Shown one piece after another: positions 13,759 to 22,723 of a stretch of DNA of 64,000 nucleotides (the first letter of the stretch is position 1; each line of letters starts with the position of its first letter). Made by a program: the position numbers and the translations under genes. Under the pieces are notes generated by a model, which saw only the letters and a list, made by a program, of their open reading frames with translations, searched no databases and had not been told where the DNA came from. Origin of the DNA: Leptolyngbyaceae cyanobacterium (lineage in GTDB: Bacteria > Cyanobacteriota > Cyanobacteriia > Phormidesmidales > Phormidesmidaceae); assembly GCA_050331235.1 (NCBI GenBank), contig JBHJHA010000012.1, forward strand, positions 1 to 64,000, in the 5' to 3' direction.

Positions 13759-14015
13759 GGTTTTTGGAAAAAAGCGCACAGTCTTTAATGATAGGACAGG
13801 AGATGGAGTTACGTCTAGTCCCTTCGGGCAAATGTTGGCAAGAATGTCGTGTGGCTGCCAAGGTCCAGGCTCACCGCTGATCGAGCCGGCAAGCTACACT
13901 GCTAGACGGAGTGTTCCTAGCATAGAGCTCAATGGTAGCTTGCATTTACACTCTGAATGATCAGGCAGACTTTGCCGTCCACATTTTTGCTTTGTTCGCG
14001 ATCTCGTTACTTTCC

Positions 14016-14843
14016 ATGAATCTGCTATCTCAATTGTTGTCTCGTCCTAATCGCAAATCGGTCAGTCGTCGCCGCTCCCGTGGCGTTGAGATCAAAACTG
14101 AGACCGAGATCCTAGTTATGCGAGAGGCTTCCCGCATTGTGGCTACGGTGCTTAAAGAGATTGTTGACCGGGTCGAACCGGGAATGACAACGGCTGATCT
14201 GGACGCTTATGCAGAAAGTCGCATCCGGGCTCTGGGCGCAACCCCCAGCTTCAAGGGATATCACGGCTTTCCGGGTAGCATTTGCGCTTGCTTAAATGAT
14301 GAAGTCGTCCACGGCATTCCTCGGGTCAATAAGGTGATCCGCGCAGGGGATGTGTTGAAAGTAGACACCGGGGCCTACTTCCAAGGATTTCACGGTGACT
14401 CCTGTATTACGATTCCGGTGGGCACGGTCTCCGCAACGGCTCAGGCATTGATCCAAACGGCTGAGGCTTGTTTGTATGCTGGCATCCGGCAGGTCAAGGC
14501 GGGGCATACCTTGTTAGACATTGCGGGCGCAATTGAAGATGCCACCGTGGGCTCTGGCTTCAGCATCGTCGAAAATTATGTTGGCCATGGTGTAGGCCGT
14601 AACCTGCACGAGCCGCCGTCGGTCTTTAATTGTCGCACTCGGCAATTGCCCAATGTTACCCTCCAAGCAGGGATGACCCTAGCGATTGAGCCCATTTTGA
14701 ATGCGGGTAAAAAGCATACTCGGACGCTAGGCGATCGCTGGACCGTCGTTACCTTAGACCGTTCACTATCGGCTCAGTTTGAGCACACGGTATTAGTCAC
14801 AGAAACCGGCTACGAAATTCTGACCGATCGCGATCGCCTCTAA
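14016..14843 (+). CDS. map: Type I methionine aminopeptidase
   Basis: VVHGIP, DTGA..HGDS, GHGVG..LHE, AIEP, SAQFEHT. Confidence 0.95.
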
Positions 14844-14902: not shown

Positions 14903-16810
14903 TTACTGTTCTCGCGGATCAGCAGTCCACAGAACCACGAGGGTATTAGACCCACCACTGCCAAAAGGAACGATTGAAGCGTATAGCTGAGGCGTGCCAA
15001 CTACCGTCATCTGTAGCAGCAGCGCACCGCAGTACTCGCCAGCATCGCTGGGTTCAACTTGGTAAGCCCGCCCTAATGTCAGCGGCACAAACTCGGAATT
15101 TTCCGACAGGATCAGCGCATCGGCGGCGGCTTCAACCGGGACGAAACTTGTCTCAGAAATATCGGCTAGGAAACAACTTTGGTCGATATCCTCTGGCCAA
15201 CCGATTTGCAACGAGGCCGCAGCAATTTCTAATTGGGTGTTGAGACTGCCGGCGGGGTAGGCTTCAATTTGTTCGCGACCGTTGTCAATGAGTTGGGTTT
15301 GTTGCGCAGGGTCAAAGGCGATCGCCTCGCCTGTCGTCTCCGCCGGGTCTGATTCCGGTGAACCGCCGCTAGCCGATGGGTTGCCTGGGTCAGCATTTGC
15401 CGCTGTGGTACGACTGTCGGAAACCTCAAATGAGTCTGAATCGGTGGGCTGACAATTAACGCTGTTGTAATCGACCTCGACCTCAATCACATATAGCTTG
15501 ACCGATTCGGCTTCGGGAAACTCAAAGGTTGACACCAGTTCCTTAGCGGTTTCATCAAAGTTTTGATATCCCGTAGAGCGAATCTGGAAAGGTTCGTTGA
15601 CCAAACTACCATCGGGATTGACCACTACACCCCACTCTGCATCTTTAGGCTCAATGGGTAAGCAAATCTCCACTGGATAAGGAACCTCTGGCTCAAAGTC
15701 TTCAAATTCTTCGGCCATCAGTTCCCCTTCAGAGGGCAGGTCGACGTTTTCTGCCTCCTCCAAGGATTTTATCCAACGCTCTTGGGCCGCTTTGGCATCC
15801 CTCGGCGTCGTCAGATCGGGCCCCACGTACTGATCCAAAACAGCAAAATATTCAGCCGGCACCTTATCGACATCGGGGGGCCACTCACAGCCATCGGCGT
15901 CATAATCGACGCTGACCTCTGCCAGATAGGCCTTGGGCTCATCGGTATCAGGGAAGCTATATTGTCTGATTTGATCAGCGGCGGCATTATCAAAGTTACG
16001 GTAACCTGTTCGCTGTACAAAGGGTTGATAAGGATCCACTGTGCCCTCAGCATCCACTAGCACCAGCAGTTGGGCTTTACGGGGAGCACTGGGTAAGCAA
16101 ATGTTGGCTTCGTAGGGCAGGGGATCCAAGCCGTCCAGTGGCTCAATTTCTAAATTAGTAAATTCCGCCCCGCGATCGCTAAAACTTTCCAGCCAGGTCA
16201 TTTGCGCCGCGGCGGCATCCTCGTCCGAAACCTTGACGCCGTTATATTCCGCAAATACTGCAATGTATTGCTCAAAGGGCGTCGGCCCTGATGCGGTGTT
16301 GGCCCCGGGAGTCCTGCCGATACCGCTAGTCGAGCGTCCTACGTCAGGATTGGGCGGATTCGGGTTGTCAGCGGAGGGCACATCTGACAAGTCAGGTACT
16401 TGTGGTTGCGCAGAGGTGCCCGAAGCGCGGCTGCGCTGGGACGAAACACTGCTTTGACTGTTAGAGCGAGTCCCTTGAGCGGCACCACTCGATCGCCTAG
16501 ATGCGGTAGTTGCCCCCGATGGGCGGGCAGCGGTTTGAGTTTGAGGCGCAGTTTTGACGGTGCCAGCGTTTGTCGGCGGAGTAGAGACCCGCGGCGTAGG
16601 TGCATCAATCTTGGTAATCGCGATACCGTCTTCTTCCGGATCCGGCGGCGGCAGTAGATCGTCATCGGAGGGCCCCACCGGTGTGAACAAGACCAGACCA
16701 TGTAGCCCGACGGAAACTAGCAGCATGGGTGCGAGTAGCCAGCGCCAATATTGAGGCGACGCCTTTTTGGACCGGGGGGGCGACTTCAGCGTTTTGCTAT
16801 CTTGGACCAT
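14903..16810 (-). CDS. TonB-like membrane-anchored protein with two TonB C-terminal-like repeats and an unrecognised C-terminal domain
   Basis: TM with SVGLH, Pro/Ser-rich linker, repeats VDAEG..RTGYRNFDNAA and VNPDG..STGYQNFDETA; C-terminus homologous to the next gene. Confidence 0.65.
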   Translation of the reverse strand: MVQDSKTLKSPPRSKKASPQYWRWLLAPMLLVSVGLHGLVLFTPVGPSDDDLLPPPDPEEDGIAITKIDAPTPRVSTPPTNAGTVKTAPQTQTAARPSGATTASRRSSGAAQGTRSNSQSSVSSQRSRASGTSAQPQVPDLSDVPSADNPNPPNPDVGRSTSGIGRTPGANTASGPTPFEQYIAVFAEYNGVKVSDEDAAAAQMTWLESFSDRGAEFTNLEIEPLDGLDPLPYEANICLPSAPRKAQLLVLVDAEGTVDPYQPFVQRTGYRNFDNAAADQIRQYSFPDTDEPKAYLAEVSVDYDADGCEWPPDVDKVPAEYFAVLDQYVGPDLTTPRDAKAAQERWIKSLEEAENVDLPSEGELMAEEFEDFEPEVPYPVEICLPIEPKDAEWGVVVNPDGSLVNEPFQIRSTGYQNFDETAKELVSTFEFPEAESVKLYVIEVEVDYNSVNCQPTDSDSFEVSDSRTTAANADPGNPSASGGSPESDPAETTGEAIAFDPAQQTQLIDNGREQIEAYPAGSLNTQLEIAAASLQIGWPEDIDQSCFLADISETSFVPVEAAADALILSENSEFVPLTLGRAYQVEPSDAGEYCGALLLQMTVVGTPQLYASIVPFGSGGSNTLVVLWTADPREQ

Positions 16811-16922
16811 TTTGGGCAGGGAAGTGTGGATAGATAAAACTCAAACAAGGCTAACGATGCGGCAACCGGAACTGAGGTTAGTGATAGATCAAGTTCCGTG
16901 CATAGAACCCGATCAACCATCG

Positions 16923-17795
16923 CTATCTCGGGTCAGACGTCCATAGGGCAACCACTACCGCGCCACCACCACGATCGCCGCCCGGCTCCATCAGCGACGC
17001 ATATAATTGCGGTACGCCGTTATCTTGCAATTCATACAAGCGAGCACCACAAAATTCTCCCACCAGAGCCTGGCTAGTACAATAGCCGCTATTGCACAGC
17101 ACCTCGGGAACGTAATCGATATTTTGCGTGACGACAACAGTGTCGATGACTCCATTTACCGGCGTTAGCCCGCCCGTATCAGGACTCGGATCAATCTCGG
17201 CAAAAAAGCATCCCGGATCTACGCCGCCTTTTAAACCATCCTGATCGATGTAGGCGGCAATCAATCCGGGATCACCTTGGTTCAGGCTACCAAACTCAGT
17301 GCTGCCAAGATTTTGCCGTCCACCTCCAGCCAAAGCACTTTGCCGTGCTGGGTCAAACGACCCGCCTCCCTGCTCCTCCGGAAAATCGTCTTCTTCAGGA
17401 AAGACATCTTCCTCTGGTGCCGGATCCGGCGCTGGTTGAACTTGCTCCGGATCTGGGGGCGGAGGCACCTCTGCTGGTGGGGCAGGAGTTTCTGGCTGTG
17501 ATGGCTGAGGCTGTTCCGGGGGGGGCTCTTCGGGGGGGGGCTCCGGGGCCGGCAACTCCGACGGCGTGAGAATATCCACGGGCGCCTCTTCTTCCTCTTC
17601 GACCTCCTCTTCTGTCTCTGCCTCCTCAGCTTCGTCAGGGGTGGGCAGCGGCACAAATAACAGGGCAATGTGGAGAGCCACAGAGATCCCCATCAGGGGC
17701 GCAATCAACATCTGCCAGCGCCATTTGCGGGTGGCTACTTTCGCGGGTACTGGCTCCTGTGGAGTTTGCTTTTCCAAGGTCTCTGTGTTCGGCAT
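16923..17795 (-). CDS. TonB-anchor-like Pro/Glu-rich protein, paralog of the downstream gene
   Basis: TM with SVALH, Pro/Glu linker, C-terminal domain FDPA...PQLYAS...LWTSDPR. Confidence 0.65.
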   Translation of the reverse strand: MPNTETLEKQTPQEPVPAKVATRKWRWQMLIAPLMGISVALHIALLFVPLPTPDEAEEAETEEEVEEEEEAPVDILTPSELPAPEPPPEEPPPEQPQPSQPETPAPPAEVPPPPDPEQVQPAPDPAPEEDVFPEEDDFPEEQGGGSFDPARQSALAGGGRQNLGSTEFGSLNQGDPGLIAAYIDQDGLKGGVDPGCFFAEIDPSPDTGGLTPVNGVIDTVVVTQNIDYVPEVLCNSGYCTSQALVGEFCGARLYELQDNGVPQLYASLMEPGGDRGGGAVVVALWTSDPR

Positions 17796-18004
17796 GCCAA
17801 TAAGAGAATAACGCTATGGATATCGGTGAACTGCTAAATGGGCTATCAAAACCGTTGGCGCGACGTGTCAAATTCGAATTAATCTTCAGTCTTCCTTCCG
17901 CACCGAATTGGGCTACTCTATGACTTTATGCGGCCTATTCCCTGAATGACAGGCGTTGGGGGTCGCATTTGGGGCTTGCTATCTCTGCCTAGAAAGGCAT
18001 CGAA

Positions 18005-18904
18005 CTAGAGGCTCTCCAGAAGAAAGTCATATTCAACCGCAGTCAAAGGCAGTGCCCCGTTCTCAGTAATCAACGCAGTATCTCTGGCGGCTTGTAAGTA
18101 GTATTCGATAAAGCTCCGAACGTCTTCATTATTGAGCAATCCGGCATTGACGTAGACAAACAGGGGGCGGGCTAAGGGATACTCCCCAGCCGCAATATTT
18201 TCGATGCTAAGCTCAACGCCATCAATGCTCAAGGCTCTCAGCCGCTCAGCATCTTCCAAATAGTAGGGCAGTGACAAGTAACCCATGGCATTAGGCTCAG
18301 AGGCTACGGCTTTTACAATTAGCTCATCGTTATCGGCCACGGTGTAGTCTGTACGGCTAGCTCCTCTCTCTCCATTGATTTCGCCTGTGAAAACATCAAA
18401 TGTGCCAGAGTCCGCCCCACGAGCAAACAGGGTGATGGGTTGGCGAGGCCACTCAGGGTTAACTTGGTTACAATGCGTGAATGTGCCTTCAGCCTCAGGA
18501 GCCCAGATTTGATTGAGTGCTTGCGTAGAAACAGTCTCCAAAAAGGGACTTTGAGCCGAGGTAACTACGATGACCGCATCGACGGCAACAAACAGCTCAA
18601 TCCCATTGCTAGCAAAAACCTCAAGCTCCCGCTCGTAGATGGGCCGAGAGGCATTTGCTATGTCGATGTCCCCCGCGCAGAACTTTTGCATCCCCCGTCC
18701 AGTGCTGGAGCGATCGACCATGATATCGACATCTTCATGCTCTGCCATGAACTCTGTCGCGATCGCCTCAGTAATGTGAAATAGGAGCCTAGCCCCATCG
18801 ATCGCAATACCTGCTGGAGTTGGAGAAGGGATGCCGGCAAACAGGCCAGCTGAGGTTGCTAGCGCAATCCAGACATCTTTAGACTGACTCTCGTTAGCAA
18901 CCAC
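18005..18904 (-). CDS. Divergent PstS-family substrate-binding paralog (possibly degenerate)
   Basis: Colinear with the adjacent PstS (KFCAG, NASRPI, DSGTFD, LARPLFVY) but with altered phosphate-binding motifs. Confidence 0.8.
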   Translation of the reverse strand: MVANESQSKDVWIALATSAGLFAGIPSPTPAGIAIDGARLLFHITEAIATEFMAEHEDVDIMVDRSSTGRGMQKFCAGDIDIANASRPIYERELEVFASNGIELFVAVDAVIVVTSAQSPFLETVSTQALNQIWAPEAEGTFTHCNQVNPEWPRQPITLFARGADSGTFDVFTGEINGERGASRTDYTVADNDELIVKAVASEPNAMGYLSLPYYLEDAERLRALSIDGVELSIENIAAGEYPLARPLFVYVNAGLLNNEDVRSFIEYYLQAARDTALITENGALPLTAVEYDFLLESL

Positions 18905-19029
18905 CTAGCAAACCCCTTAAGCTCGAAACACGACGGACCAGCTGGATGACTAAAGGAAATAACCCGCTGAGTATTAGTCTGGTGTATTCGGTATTAGCCA
19001 TTGTCCAGAGATGAGCTCCTCGCTACTCA

Positions 19030-19072
19030 TAACAACCCCCAGGACAAAATAAGCTTGCCCTGGGGGTTGTTA
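19030..19072. terminator. 14-bp stem-loop between the two pstS genes
   Basis: TAACAACCCCCAGG ... CCTGGGGGTTGTTA. Confidence 0.7.
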
Positions 19073-19078
19073 GTCAAT

Positions 19079-19126
19079 CAGCAACTTAGCTGTAAGAACA
19101 ACCAGCAACTTAGCTGTAAGAACAAC
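19079..19126. repeat. Exact 24-bp tandem duplication
   Basis: CAGCAACTTAGCTGTAAGAACAAC twice, immediately after the pstS stop codon. Confidence 0.95.
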
Positions 19127-19128
19127 GC

Positions 19129-20058
19129 TTAGAGCTTGTCAATCTCTTCGTTGTACTCATCTTCAGTCAGCGGTACATAGCCGACTGCAGTTACCAGAGT
19201 GGTGTCACGGGCAGTCTCGAGGTAGTAGTTGACAAAAGCTTCAACTTCAGGGCGATCGAGCTCTGAAGGGTTGATGTAGATGAACAGGGGACGCGCTAGC
19301 GCATAGTCACCGTTCTTAGCATTTTCAGGCGTGGGAGCCACACCATCAACGCTCAGTGCCTTGAGCGTGTCTTCATTCTCGAGGAAGTAAGACAGACCGA
19401 AATAGCCCATTGCATTGGGGTTACGCTGAACACCCAAAACGATGATATTGTCGTCTTCACTAGCTGTGTAGTCAGCTCGGCTAGCACCTTCTTCGCCGTT
19501 GACTTCGTCAGTAAAGAAGTCAAAGGTACCGGAGTCAGTACCGGGGCCAAATAGGCTGATGGGAGCATTGGGCCAGCTAGAATCTACTTGATTCCAACGA
19601 GTGACACTGCCTTCGGCTTCGGGAGACCAGATAGTATTTAGCTCTTCGAGGGTGATGTTGGGGTTAGAGCCAGTGAAAACAGTGCTGTCTTGAGGTACAA
19701 CGACGGTTAGCGCGTCAGTACCGACCAAAACTTCGATGGGCTCGATGCCATTCTCGGCGCAAGCCTCGATTTCTTCGTCCTTAATCGGACGGGAAGCGTT
19801 GGAGATTGAAGTTTCGCCAGCGCAGAATTTACGGAAGCCACCACCAGTACCGGAAACGCCAACAACGATGTTGATACCGCTGTTATCAGACATGAATTCC
19901 TCAGCCATCGCCTCGGTTATGGGGAAGACAGTACTAGAACCATCAATCGAAATCAGTCCGTCTTGTGCCTGAGACTGAGAAGAAGAAACGGCGAGTAGAC
20001 CAATGGTCGTTGCTAGTGCTACAGAAGCACCCGCAAATTTAACCTTGTTTGCAAACAT
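19129..20058 (-). CDS. pstS: Phosphate ABC transporter substrate-binding protein
   Basis: [33 protein letters not shown]; signal peptide; GGAG RBS 8 nt before ATG 20058. Confidence 0.93.
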
Positions 20059-20115
20059 TACACACACTCCGTGGAGTCATCAAAACTCAAAACCACCGTG
20101 TAAATTACTGCTTCA

Positions 20116-20178
20116 AGGTTAAAATCGAGCCGTCCAAAGACTAAGGGAGGTTTTTGAAAAGATTAAATGCTAGTTAAA
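20116..20178 (-). promoter_or_regulatory. Pho-box (SphR/PhoB-type) array upstream of pstS
   Basis: TTTAACTA (20178-20171), TTTAATCT (20167-20160), CTTAGTCT (20145-20138), TTTAACCT (20123-20116), all in 11-bp register; consensus YTTAAYYW. Confidence 0.75.
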
Positions 20179-20458
20179 AATATAAAAATACAGCGTTTGG
20201 GAACCTTGAAACGACCCAGTGCGTCTATCGGTCGTTGGCAACAGGTAATTTACTATATATTTTCTAATTTAGATTAGCTCTTAACTTACTTTCTAGAGTT
20301 CAAAAACTAGCCTGCAATGCTATTCTGCCTTGCACTGCCCTGCAACTGCTGACGGGTTCGCCCGACCGTTAAAAGTTCTGCATAGGCCAGCGCTAAATGA
20401 TGGTCCACCAGAAACTTTACAGATAGATTGCCCAGGTGAAGTTCAAAGGAGGATCGCT

Positions 20459-20516: not shown

Positions 20517-21377
20517 TCACCGACTCTGACGGTCGAGACGATGGGACATCGGAATCTTTTTGACCTTCGTGGCTAATCCTAGCCGTTGGAGTAAGCGAAT
20601 AGTCATCCAGGTGATGTCAATCTCCCACCAATACCAGCCGGTTTGCGCTGATCGCGGAAATGTATGGTGGTTATTGTGCCAGCCCTCGCCATAGGTGAGC
20701 AAGGAAACCCACCAGAGGTTCCGCGCATTATCCTCAGCATTAAAGTTACGATAACCCCAGCAGTGGGTGGCTGAGTTGACAAACCAAGTGGAATGCCATA
20801 GCAATACGACCCGGCCAAACACGCCATAGAGGACAAAAGGCCAGCCCCCTAGCACATACAGTAAAATCGCAAGTGGTACTTGCAATAAAATGAAGAATCG
20901 ATCAAGCCAGCGATAGTATGCCTCCCGAGCTAAGTCAGGTGCATATTTTGAATATTTTTCAAAGACAAATGAGTCCTCTTGGGGTCTCAAAATCCACATT
21001 ATGTGGCTCCACCAAAATCCCCGCTTTGCTGAGTAAGGGTCTCGTTCGGGGTCTTCTGTAAACGCGTGATGCTGCCGATGGCCCCCTACCCAAAAGATCG
21101 GGCCGCCTTGAGCTGCGAGAGCTCCGATGGTCGTGGCGATGTATTCTAACCAGCGGGGCACTCGAAAGCTGCGGTGGCTGAGCAGACGGTGGTATCCCAA
21201 GCAGATGCCGATACTCCCGAACAGCCAGTGTAATAGCAGCATGATCCCCAAGGCTGACCAGGAAAAAAAGAATGGGGTCAAGAGGGCGATCGCATGCACG
21301 ATGCCAAAAAAAGTAATCACGCCCCAGTCAAGTTTGGCTTGATATTGCGGGGACGTTGAGAGTCGAGTTGAAGTCAT
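20517..21377 (-). CDS. desC: Delta-9 acyl-lipid desaturase (DesC family)
   Basis: His boxes HRLLSH, HRQHH, HNNHH; GEGW. Confidence 0.88.
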   Translation of the reverse strand: MTSTRLSTSPQYQAKLDWGVITFFGIVHAIALLTPFFFSWSALGIMLLLHWLFGSIGICLGYHRLLSHRSFRVPRWLEYIATTIGALAAQGGPIFWVGGHRQHHAFTEDPERDPYSAKRGFWWSHIMWILRPQEDSFVFEKYSKYAPDLAREAYYRWLDRFFILLQVPLAILLYVLGGWPFVLYGVFGRVVLLWHSTWFVNSATHCWGYRNFNAEDNARNLWWVSLLTYGEGWHNNHHTFPRSAQTGWYWWEIDITWMTIRLLQRLGLATKVKKIPMSHRLDRQSR

Positions 21378-21444: not shown

Positions 21445-21512
21445 ACGAAGTTAGCGTAGCGACTTTTTGCTCTAAGTGCAAGGGCTAAATAGCGTTGATA
21501 ATTTCCTTTACT

Positions 21513-21527
21513 GCAAGTTTCACTTGC
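21513..21527. promoter_or_regulatory. Palindromic operator 2 (putative TetR site)
   Basis: GCAAGTT-T-CACTTGC, 8 nt before the TetR ATG; 14/15 identical to operator 1. Confidence 0.7.
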
Positions 21528-21535
21528 TAGGCTAT

Positions 21536-22723
21536 ATGGCGACTTCTTCCCGAGATCGACTCATCCAAGCAGCTTTGACCCTCTTTTTGTCACAAGGGGT
21601 CAGCCAAACCACGACCCGGCAAATTGCCGACTTGGCCGCAGTCAATGAGGTGACGCTGTTCCGCAACTTCGGTAATAAATATGGTTTATTGCAGGCAGTC
21701 ATTCAGACTGCACCGACGTTTCGCAATCTTGGCGAGGGGTTGATGGAGCAAGTTATCGCCACCAGCGATCGCCAGCAAGCGCTATATACCTATGCCAGCG
21801 AATGTCTCGCTGCTCTGGAACAATCCCCTGCTTTTGTGCGATCGCTGATCGGTGAAGCTGACCAGTTTCCAGCCGAGAACCGTCGAGCTTTAGGGCAAAG
21901 AATTGAGGAGGCGAGCTGCTATGTGGCTCGCTATCTGAAACAAACGATGCCCACAGATACGTTTCCGGCAGAGCGATTATCCGGTTATCTTGGTGCCTTG
22001 CTAGTGGGCTATGTTGTAATTGAATCCTCCAGCGATGACCACCATTTGTGGACAAATCGAGAAAACTTTTTGCAGGGGCTGGTAACGCTACTTCTGGGGG
22101 GAACGATGCCCCTCCAATCGCCTCAGACCTGTCTGACGCCGGAGATTGATGAAACCGTTCAAGATATACCGGCCCCCATCGTTCATGAAATGTTGCAACG
22201 AGCCAAAGCCCTCGGACCCCAGGATTATGCTCTGGCTTACGTGCTGTTTGGCGCGGGCCTGACCTTGAGTGAACTGGTTAGCCTGATGCGATCGCATCAC
22301 CTCAGTACTAAAACTCAACAAACATTGCAGGTTAGAGAGCGTCAAGTGGCGATCAACCAATGGATTTTGGGCAAGCGGTACGGCTCGTACACTAGCAATC
22401 CGCTAACTAAGTGGCTCAAGAGCCGCAAAGACCATAGCCCTTACCTGTTCATGACAGAGACTGACGCATCGTCTCCCTTGGCGATTGCCGACCTCGAGCA
22501 ACGGTGGTCAGCTTGGACAGGCGATATCGACTTGCCCACAGCAATTGTCCCCTCCCAAGCCAAACAAACCTGGTGTGTTGAGATGTTGACCCGGGGAATG
22601 GATGTGGATAACCTCAGCATCCTATCGGGTCTTACGTCTAACCAGTTGGCCCCATATATTCAAAGGGCTCGGGAAAAAGAAGCGCTAGAGCAGGCTCGAC
22701 TGCTCGACCAGAAGCAGACATGA
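21536..22723 (+). CDS. TetR/AcrR regulator fused to a tyrosine-recombinase-like C-terminal domain
   Basis: HTH TTRQIADLAAVNEVTLFRNFGNK; C-terminal LFGAGLTLSELVSL and QTWCVEMLTRGMD..LSGL..LAPY. Confidence 0.85.
   Translation: MATSSRDRLIQAALTLFLSQGVSQTTTRQIADLAAVNEVTLFRNFGNKYGLLQAVIQTAPTFRNLGEGLMEQVIATSDRQQALYTYASECLAALEQSPAFVRSLIGEADQFPAENRRALGQRIEEASCYVARYLKQTMPTDTFPAERLSGYLGALLVGYVVIESSSDDHHLWTNRENFLQGLVTLLLGGTMPLQSPQTCLTPEIDETVQDIPAPIVHEMLQRAKALGPQDYALAYVLFGAGLTLSELVSLMRSHHLSTKTQQTLQVRERQVAINQWILGKRYGSYTSNPLTKWLKSRKDHSPYLFMTETDASSPLAIADLEQRWSAWTGDIDLPTAIVPSQAKQTWCVEMLTRGMDVDNLSILSGLTSNQLAPYIQRAREKEALEQARLLDQKQT

Follow-up and report, generated by a model that had tools for sequence, protein, structure and literature searches.

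Why would a cyanobacterium place genes for phosphate-binding proteins, behind what looks like a phosphate-starvation promoter, directly ahead of genes for proteins with the anchor motif of TonB? The locus that raises this question belongs to a Leptolyngbyaceae cyanobacterium (GenBank assembly GCA_050331235.1) and lies in the first 64,000 nucleotides of contig JBHJHA010000012.1, the stretch that we analysed and refer to as the window. Four minus-strand open reading frames (ORFs) follow one another at 19129-20067, 18005-18904, 16923-17795 and 14903-16810, with intergenic gaps of 224, 209 and 112 nt. The first two encode PstS-type proteins (pstS-A and pstS-B), and the other two encode anchor proteins with an SxxxH motif in a membrane helix. 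A first-pass annotation of this DNA had described four co-oriented genes behind a Pho-box array, and the ORF positions, family scores and repeat scores confirm that description. It had also remarked that pstCAB, exbBD and a TonB-dependent receptor are missing; none of them is found among the 41 window ORFs scanned, but pstCAB and exbB loci do exist elsewhere in the genome. The reading that we favour, to which we give somewhat less than an even chance, is a motor-driven hand-over of soluble, loaded PstS across the periplasm to PstCAB, in which the binding is predicted and the movement inferred.

This reading begins with the end domain of the shorter anchor protein. The 290-residue protein (16923..17795, minus strand) consists of the SxxxH membrane helix, a Pro/Glu-rich linker and a C-terminal alpha/beta domain of ~145 residues (16926..17375, minus strand), a predicted PstS binder. 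The 635-residue protein (14903..16810, minus strand) has an SxxxH helix, a disordered linker with low pLDDT at residues 43-173, two TonB C-terminal-fold repeats in tandem (15446..16282, minus strand; residues ~177-312 and ~315-455) and a fused C-terminal domain (14906..15328, minus strand; residues ~495-635). The C-terminal domains of the two proteins are homologous (hhalign probability 99.6), and we term both X. Each protein has a single N-terminal hydrophobic segment, with mean hydropathies of 2.37 and 2.03 and the motif at S38/H42 and S33/H37. Calling them two TonB-anchor proteins, as had been done at first, is thus right as far as the helix and its motif go, but TonB C-terminal (TonB-C) domains were recognised only in the 635-residue protein. 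Its repeats score 25.2 bits with TIGR01352 and 17.8 bits with PF03544, both below the cut-off. Their six best fold matches are all TonB-C domains (VIA top Z 6.2, root-mean-square deviation (rmsd) 2.3 over 75 residues, to 9ddz_A), and Foldseek gives a probability of 0.99 with an rmsd of 1.6 over 63 columns to 9dc4_T.

Domain X is a different matter. No Pfam match was found in 34 members, a PDB sequence profile search returned 0 matches, and Foldseek found nothing at E 0.001 for the fold. The best VIA match has a Z of 4.5, there is no TonB-C chain among the 50 matches listed, and the model is that of a different, larger alpha/beta domain. A PsbP/Mog1/DcrB-like fold was considered and rejected, since its Z of 3.4-3.8 is within background. 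The ESM Atlas offers only an unnamed cyanobacterial cluster (TM 0.60). The X profile has 508 representatives at 50% identity; 149 were checked, and the anchor is present in 113 of the 122 that are full-length. The anchor His is found in 86 of 86 proteins of the X family, and the position of the Ser is held by Ser in 62 and by Ala in 24. In the short family the linker has a median of 96 residues, 26% of them Pro, which by our own arithmetic gives ~30 nm if it forms polyproline II. A length of 32 nm is said to match the membrane distance in Anabaena (PMC8597729; papers are cited here by PubMed Central identifier). Taken together, the sequence comparisons suggest that the gene for the 290-residue protein is the conserved core and that its end domain X is an unnamed domain distinct from TonB-C.

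The link between pstS and anchor genes recurs across cyanobacteria. The synteny check proposed in the first-pass annotation was run, and the link holds in 12 of the 14 families sampled, often with exbBD adjacent, contrary to the missing linkage in related genomes that the annotation had given as a ground for refutation. Of 93 loci chosen by rank of E-value, 81 have a pst gene at most 5 kb from X, namely 39 of 43 from the organism's own family and 42 of 50 from other families, these 42 all at 1 kb or less. For exbB or exbD the counts within 5 kb are 10/43 and 31/50. We estimate a chance expectation of ~1%, given the few pst and exb loci of a 5-Mb genome; the counts ignore kinship, and relatives are not independent. 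Excluded from the 93 were L065 and L066 (long gene alone), L076 (a fragment), L078, L080, L094 and L095 (other TonB-C paralogues), and L187-L198, named close loci whose genomes may have been counted already (a narrower-alignment scan of named genomes gave 12 close loci). In 40 further loci outside profile building, pst was near X in 24, exb in 23, both in 16 and either in 31.

Gene order varies while the partners recur. At least six arrangements are found, including exbB-D-D-pstS-X, pstS-X-exbB-D, pstSCAB-X facing exbD-exbB, and pstS-X alone; in a further one, X is divergent from a D-type pstSCAB and faces exbD-exbB. A TonB-C gene stands behind X in 40 of 43 own-family loci and in 0 of 50 others, and a second pstS is seen in no other own-family locus. 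Because these two genes are confined to the own family or to this locus, the core reduces to X, PstS and ExbBD. Matches to an X-only profile occur in 115 of 301 cyanobacterial genomes; 111 of these are also among the 143 genomes matched by an ExbB query restricted to one clade, that of the exbB on contig C20 of our genome. Both X and ExbB of this clade are missing from families f2 (0/30), f4 (0/19), f15, f20 and f30.

The C20 copy is one of three exbB loci in this genome. It belongs to an exbB-exbD-exbD cluster, and its exbB is 84-88% identical to the exbB found directly before or near pstS in close relatives. An ExbB tree places every one of the 33 linked ExbBs with the C20 copy in a single group (99/99), apart from the genome's other two exbB. 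The gene two places before the cluster (L018:3656-4786) encodes a binding protein of the iron type; its leader is twin-arginine-like, and it shares ~60% identity with the binding proteins that adjoin X in L164 and L222. The permease genes are likewise elsewhere, as pstC-pstA-pstB on contig C35 and as a pstCA fusion plus pstB on contig C57, neither with pstS. The absence of pstCAB from the locus, initially regarded as a special feature, is therefore discounted: the genome holds two pstCAB units without pstS, so that pstCAB lies in trans here, in other lineages it shares the operon, and a split-off pstS is known (PMC1906773). The fusion on C57 (L022:6748-8673) joins pstC and pstA in one 641-residue ORF, and its Pho score is among the three best of the genome.

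The PstS proteins beside X share a distinctive feature. pstS-A (19129..20067, minus strand; likely start, the ATG at 20058) encodes an S-type (SphX-like) phosphate-binding protein with an intact pocket and a cleavable signal peptide but no lipobox. It scores 286 bits with TIGR02136 (cut-off 206.6), and its phosphate pocket columns are invariant in 68 linked copies. A lipobox is found in none of the X-linked PstS proteins, 0/68 of the S-type and 0/24 of the D-type (0/92 total). Within 12 X-positive genomes, S-type PstS has a lipobox in 0 of 11 X-adjacent copies versus 17 of 19 non-adjacent ones; one of the two without it stands first in a pstSCAB-X operon, and the other has a Cys that escaped the pattern.

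Complex prediction supports a direct contact. Mature PstS-A with the X domain of the window's 290-residue protein gave an ipSAE of 0.61 (runs 0.61, 0.51 and 0.63), with contacts agreeing to at least 76% and a partner pLDDT of at least 73, whereas all three controls scored 0.00. Of 157 solved complexes, 116 attained the mark applied to ipSAE, as did 2 of 215 mismatched pairs; with our own alignments, these figures are only roughly valid. The PDB sequence profile search gave no known complex like this one. On the PstS side, the predicted interface comprises residues 176-177 and 198-216, a C-lobe helix that is well conserved in linked copies, and a motif-anchored alignment places this helix on P169, K175 and R186 of E. 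coli PstS. Those three residues contact PstC in the cryo-electron microscopy structure (PMC12976172). From this alignment we infer that the X-binding face of PstS is the PstC docking face; if so, PstS could occupy X or the permease but never both together, in keeping with a hand-over. The model thus supports, without showing, that X binds PstS. The earlier proposal that motor-coupled periplasmic proteins work with binding proteins gains from this prediction, but the parts of it that leaned on missing pstCAB and on a receptor are unsupported.

We propose the following sequence of events. Phosphate would enter the periplasm by porins and be bound by soluble PstS, and X would grip the loaded protein. 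The SxxxH helix would engage ExbB-ExbD-ExbD, encoded here on contig C20, and the motor acting on this helix would draw PstS inward, the linker being long enough to span the periplasm. PstS would then be handed over from X to PstCAB. In the own family, the TonB-C repeats of the 635-residue protein may hold an outer-membrane protein, most likely a porin, so marking the loading site and fixing the outer end. Whatever the exact movement, we think it highly probable that X and ExbBD together act on binding proteins by one means or another, a statement that also covers the next two alternatives.

In the first of these, X would be a holder and not a mover: it would do the work of a lipid anchor by keeping a non-lipidated binding protein close to the inner membrane, with the motor serving only to reset or release that protein. 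The strict lack of lipoboxes in linked PstS, set against the lipoboxes of unlinked copies, speaks for such a role, as does the predicted X-PstS binding. However, a tether would hardly need an anchor His that never varies, a linker of ~96 residues and a dedicated exbBD, and X on the PstC docking face would block delivery for as long as PstS was tethered. We regard a mere holder as quite unlikely.

In the second, PstS would be a detachable plug on the periplasmic mouth of a SomA/B-type porin, and the motor, acting through X, would pull the plug off or open, so that phosphate becomes concentrated in the periplasm. SomB/OprB-type porin genes do lie at most 3.5 kb from X in 8 loci, several of them inside a pst operon; in L183, L207, L216, L227 and L228 the porin gene stands between pstS and pstC of an X-linked pst operon. 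The fusion of X to TonB-C repeats in this genus and the persistence of X where no TonB-dependent receptor was found are also what a porin-directed device would predict. Periplasmic phosphate accumulation that depends on the proton-motive force has been reported and left unexplained (PMC7250820), although that study dealt with SAR11 and marine picocyanobacteria, and the families of small genomes that we guess to correspond to the latter, f2 (0/30) and f4 (0/19), are without X. Moreover, porin linkage is found in a minority of loci and a PstS-porin contact is hypothetical. This alternative is unlikely, if worth keeping in view.

Hand-over from X to PstCAB has no need of an outer-membrane receptor, and here it parts from a classical TonB system, which would energise a TonB-dependent receptor for organic phosphorus with PstS working downstream. 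The true TonB-C folds of the 635-residue protein and the receptors present in 33 of 36 own-family genomes would suit such a system. Yet no TonB-C domain was recognised in the core 290-residue protein, and the TonB-C gene is adjacent only in the own family, in the proportions given above. Receptor-mediated uptake across the outer membrane, offered as an example in the first-pass annotation, finds no backing: no barrel or plug domain of a TonB-dependent receptor (PF00593, PF07715) was found in the X-positive genomes G044 and G051, both single contigs, nor in G049, G018 and G033, in all of which porins were found. Our own genome gave no receptor either, but its assembly, 95.5% complete, contains just one porin gene, and that one partial; with most porin genes likewise missing from the assembly, the blank is weak and we set it aside as evidence. 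The classical reading was already disfavoured, and we consider it very improbable.

Away from pst, the neighbours of X widen the picture. Among loci not beside pst, X follows a sulfate-binding protein in 5, with exbB-exbD behind it, and a sulfonate-binding protein in 1; an iron-type binding protein lies near X in 2. The sulfate version (L202:4953-8460, L205, L209, L211 and L213) runs from the sulfate-binding protein gene through X and exbB to exbD, and four of the five also have a DUF4333 gene. A gene with this domain recurs beside exbB-exbD and X (L061:4943-5674, L143:10337-11146 and others), in 13 loci outside the own-family set and in several within it, and its product is a possible further component. 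These neighbours matter for a last alternative, in which a TolA-like envelope system, serving to maintain the outer membrane or remodel lipids, would share no more than location and regulation with pst, and the predicted binding would be an artefact. SxxxH anchors also serve TolQR, TolA C-terminal structures occur among the weaker fold matches of the 635-residue protein (Z 3.7), and some X loci have no binding-protein neighbour. An Anabaena TonB-like protein that affects porins and lipopolysaccharide has been proposed to be TolA-like (PMC8597729). But phosphate co-regulation does not explain why X follows sulfate, sulfonate and iron-type binding proteins, X is missing from many families, unlike a core envelope system, and the controls of the complex prediction scored 0.00. 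We think a TolA-like bystander improbable.

Whether phosphate controls the whole unit depends on the DNA between its genes. Upstream of pstS-A, Pho-type half-sites run from 20178 at an 11-bp period (array 20116..20178, minus strand), scoring 8, 8, 4, 7, 2 and 8 out of 8, three of them perfect and one 7/8, against the consensus PyTTAAPyPy(T/A) (PMC4195498, PMC1906773). The three-repeat score of 20 is within the top 31 positions of the 4.8-Mb genome on both strands. A score of at least 19 precedes the linked pstS in 49 of 67 S-type and 9 of 9 D-type cases, compared with 2/110 housekeeping control genes and 8/368 other genes. A second, weaker Pho-like repeat (score 19) lies upstream of the main array on the opposite strand (20258-20290, plus strand). 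X genes generally lack a Pho box of their own, so X here could come under phosphate control only through read-through.

Between pstS-A and the next gene is a strong stem-loop (19030..19072, minus strand) with no U-tract. The hairpin noted here from the beginning stands up to folding against 200 shuffles, none of which was as good (-50.9 kcal/mol over a 116-nt stretch, z -5.45). A stem of -20 kcal/mol or stronger is found 3' of linked pstS in 52 of 58 pairs from relatives, a survey without shuffle control and with crude parsing of U-tails. In E. coli ATP-binding cassette (ABC) operons, such stems are known to stabilise the binding-protein message. Transcription from the Pho promoter might accordingly continue past a stem that stabilises the mRNA and on into the anchor genes; the stem may also act as a terminator. 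A scan for sigma-70 promoters and terminators gave counts no higher than in shuffled sequence. Between the pstS-A stop and the hairpin there is also a tandem 24-nt direct repeat (19075-19122).

Several observations weigh against a motor-driven hand-over of PstS, and we collect them here. On the regulatory side, Pho scores of at least 19 precede only 6 of 86 X genes, 2 of 42 TonB-C genes and 5 of 35 exbB, near background, and the strong stem stands between pstS and the X genes. In Synechocystis, depletion of iron and not of phosphate induces sll0477-sll0479 (PMC4195498), a unit of three genes with exbB in front, though this unit possibly belongs to another ExbB clade. The complex prediction is a single one for one pair, the docking face of PstS may attract predicted partners, and the interface columns on the X side are poorly conserved and gappy. 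PstS can also work without X, since soluble PstS with no X or exbBD nearby is present at 10 loci of X-negative genomes, where only 15 of 30 PstS match the lipobox pattern. Linkage is incomplete as well: 16 of the 40 extra loci have no pst within 5 kb and 9 have neither pst nor exb, 32 of the 143 genomes with ExbB of the C20 clade show no X match, and in two genomes (L065, L066) a three-domain long gene lies away from pstS. The outgroups of the ExbB tree are only two, both on long branches. Finally, because some X genes follow sulfate-, sulfonate- or iron-binding proteins, phosphate is not the sole use of X.

The second PstS of the locus appears to have taken another path. pstS-B (18005..18904, minus strand) is an old paralogue with an intact frame, 49% identical to pstS-A, and it too passes the TIGR02136 cut-off (216.6 bits). 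That this pstS is altered had been noticed at the outset, and the pocket residues S44, S45 and T46 are indeed replaced (S44A, S45R and T46L in pstS-A numbering, with G76R), so that two arginines are gained near the pocket. Most of the predicted X-binding helix is altered and the signal peptide is weak. From our own motif reading, we take T46 to be the triad Thr. Mutagenesis is reported to show that the triad Thr is essential for phosphate binding (PMC13614923), which makes normal binding by pstS-B unlikely. We reject the idea of a recent dead copy: third codon positions have reached saturation (an identity of 35% there, against 63% and 74%), the nonsynonymous divergence (dN) is 0.41 and the indels are in frame. 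In 2000 neutral simulations to the same divergence, the frame stayed open in only 0.2-0.25%. Saturated synonymous sites and an intact frame thus indicate that pstS-B was long kept as a protein, with a late relaxation of selection that may have followed. It clusters with two other pocket-altered copies, P0099 and P0104 (support 95/91, on long branches), and is probably a side branch that is no longer a normal phosphate binder.

Other features surround these genes. Downstream of the module, map (13932-14843, plus strand) followed by rplS-secE-nusG-rplK-rplA forms a conserved border in most own-family loci. On the other side, a fatty-acid desaturase gene (20517-21377) is divergent from a plus-strand ORF (21476-22723) in which a TetR N-terminal domain is fused to a weak tyrosine-recombinase-like domain. 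hetR is also present in the window and, together with the named relatives, points to a filamentous organism. Elsewhere in this genome are two further TonB-C-like proteins with no pst or exb link (L094:8918-10321 and L095:77-541) and a 1230-residue protein on contig C24 (L025:5900-9592) that combines a PstS-like domain with WD40 and TPR repeats. Family f15 includes X-negative genomes in which a single pst operon is surrounded by arrays of four to six PstS-like genes (L299, L308).

What would this system add? Growth and blooms of cyanobacteria are limited by phosphate, and the usual teaching is that ABC importers run on ATP alone. If PstS does have a motor-coupled handle, phosphate uptake gains a proton-driven step, and ExbBD copies in genomes without TonB-dependent receptors gain a job. 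Two questions would also become testable: why ExbB-ExbD is important when Synechocystis takes up inorganic iron (reviewed in PMC7676907), and in what way periplasmic phosphate accumulation can depend on the proton-motive force (PMC7250820, on organisms without evidence for X). More broadly, we tentatively suggest, as something that may well be so but that we would not yet bet on, a third, cyanobacteria-specific branch of Ton/Tol motors, whose transducer acts on soluble binding proteins (mostly phosphate, also sulfate, sulfonate and iron) and not on outer-membrane receptors. Such a branch would give ABC importers a proton-driven stage upstream of ATP-driven transport. A literature search by titles and the starts of abstracts, with subscription journals and supplementary tables outside it, found no description of the X-pstS-exbBD link. 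The available excerpts of PMC1906773 do not mention exb or tonB, those of PMC7250820 do not mention TonB or ExbB, and those of PMC8597729 and PMC8262864 give no phosphate link for Anabaena TonB-like proteins. The module is real and conserved, and apparently undescribed in the searchable literature.

Known systems resemble it in parts. With TonB-ExbB-ExbD of the E. coli type and with Anabaena TonB3 it shares the single SxxxH helix, the Pro-rich periplasmic linker and the exbB-exbD linkage, and the 635-residue protein even carries two TonB-C-fold repeats. Unlike them, the core protein ends in X, its predicted target is a periplasmic binding protein, a receptor is neither linked nor needed, and the module goes with Pho-box genes, not iron-siderophore genes, often with two exbD. 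TolA-TolQ-TolR has the same motor superfamily and anchor motif and likewise needs no plug-type receptor, but X does not match TolA-III and its distribution is patchy; no tolB- or pal-like neighbours were seen among the recurring neighbours scanned, a subset of 54 recurring clusters and not a genome-wide search. With PstSCAB that uses S-type PstS, our locus shares the S-type pocket of pstS-A and the Pho boxes, pstCAB is in the genome, and a split-off pstS has precedent (PMC1906773). The transporter as described in the available text has no motor or anchor protein (PMC12976172), and the linked PstS is non-lipidated whereas unlinked copies in the same genomes are mostly lipoproteins. A further precedent is the reported binding of E. 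coli TonB to the periplasmic binding proteins FhuD and BtuF (cited in PMC3813593), in which a motor-coupled anchor protein contacts the substrate-binding protein of an ABC importer. There the contact is a side activity of canonical TonB beside its receptor, whereas here it would fall to a domain and a gene of their own, linked with pstS, sbpA and further genes for binding proteins and independent of any receptor.

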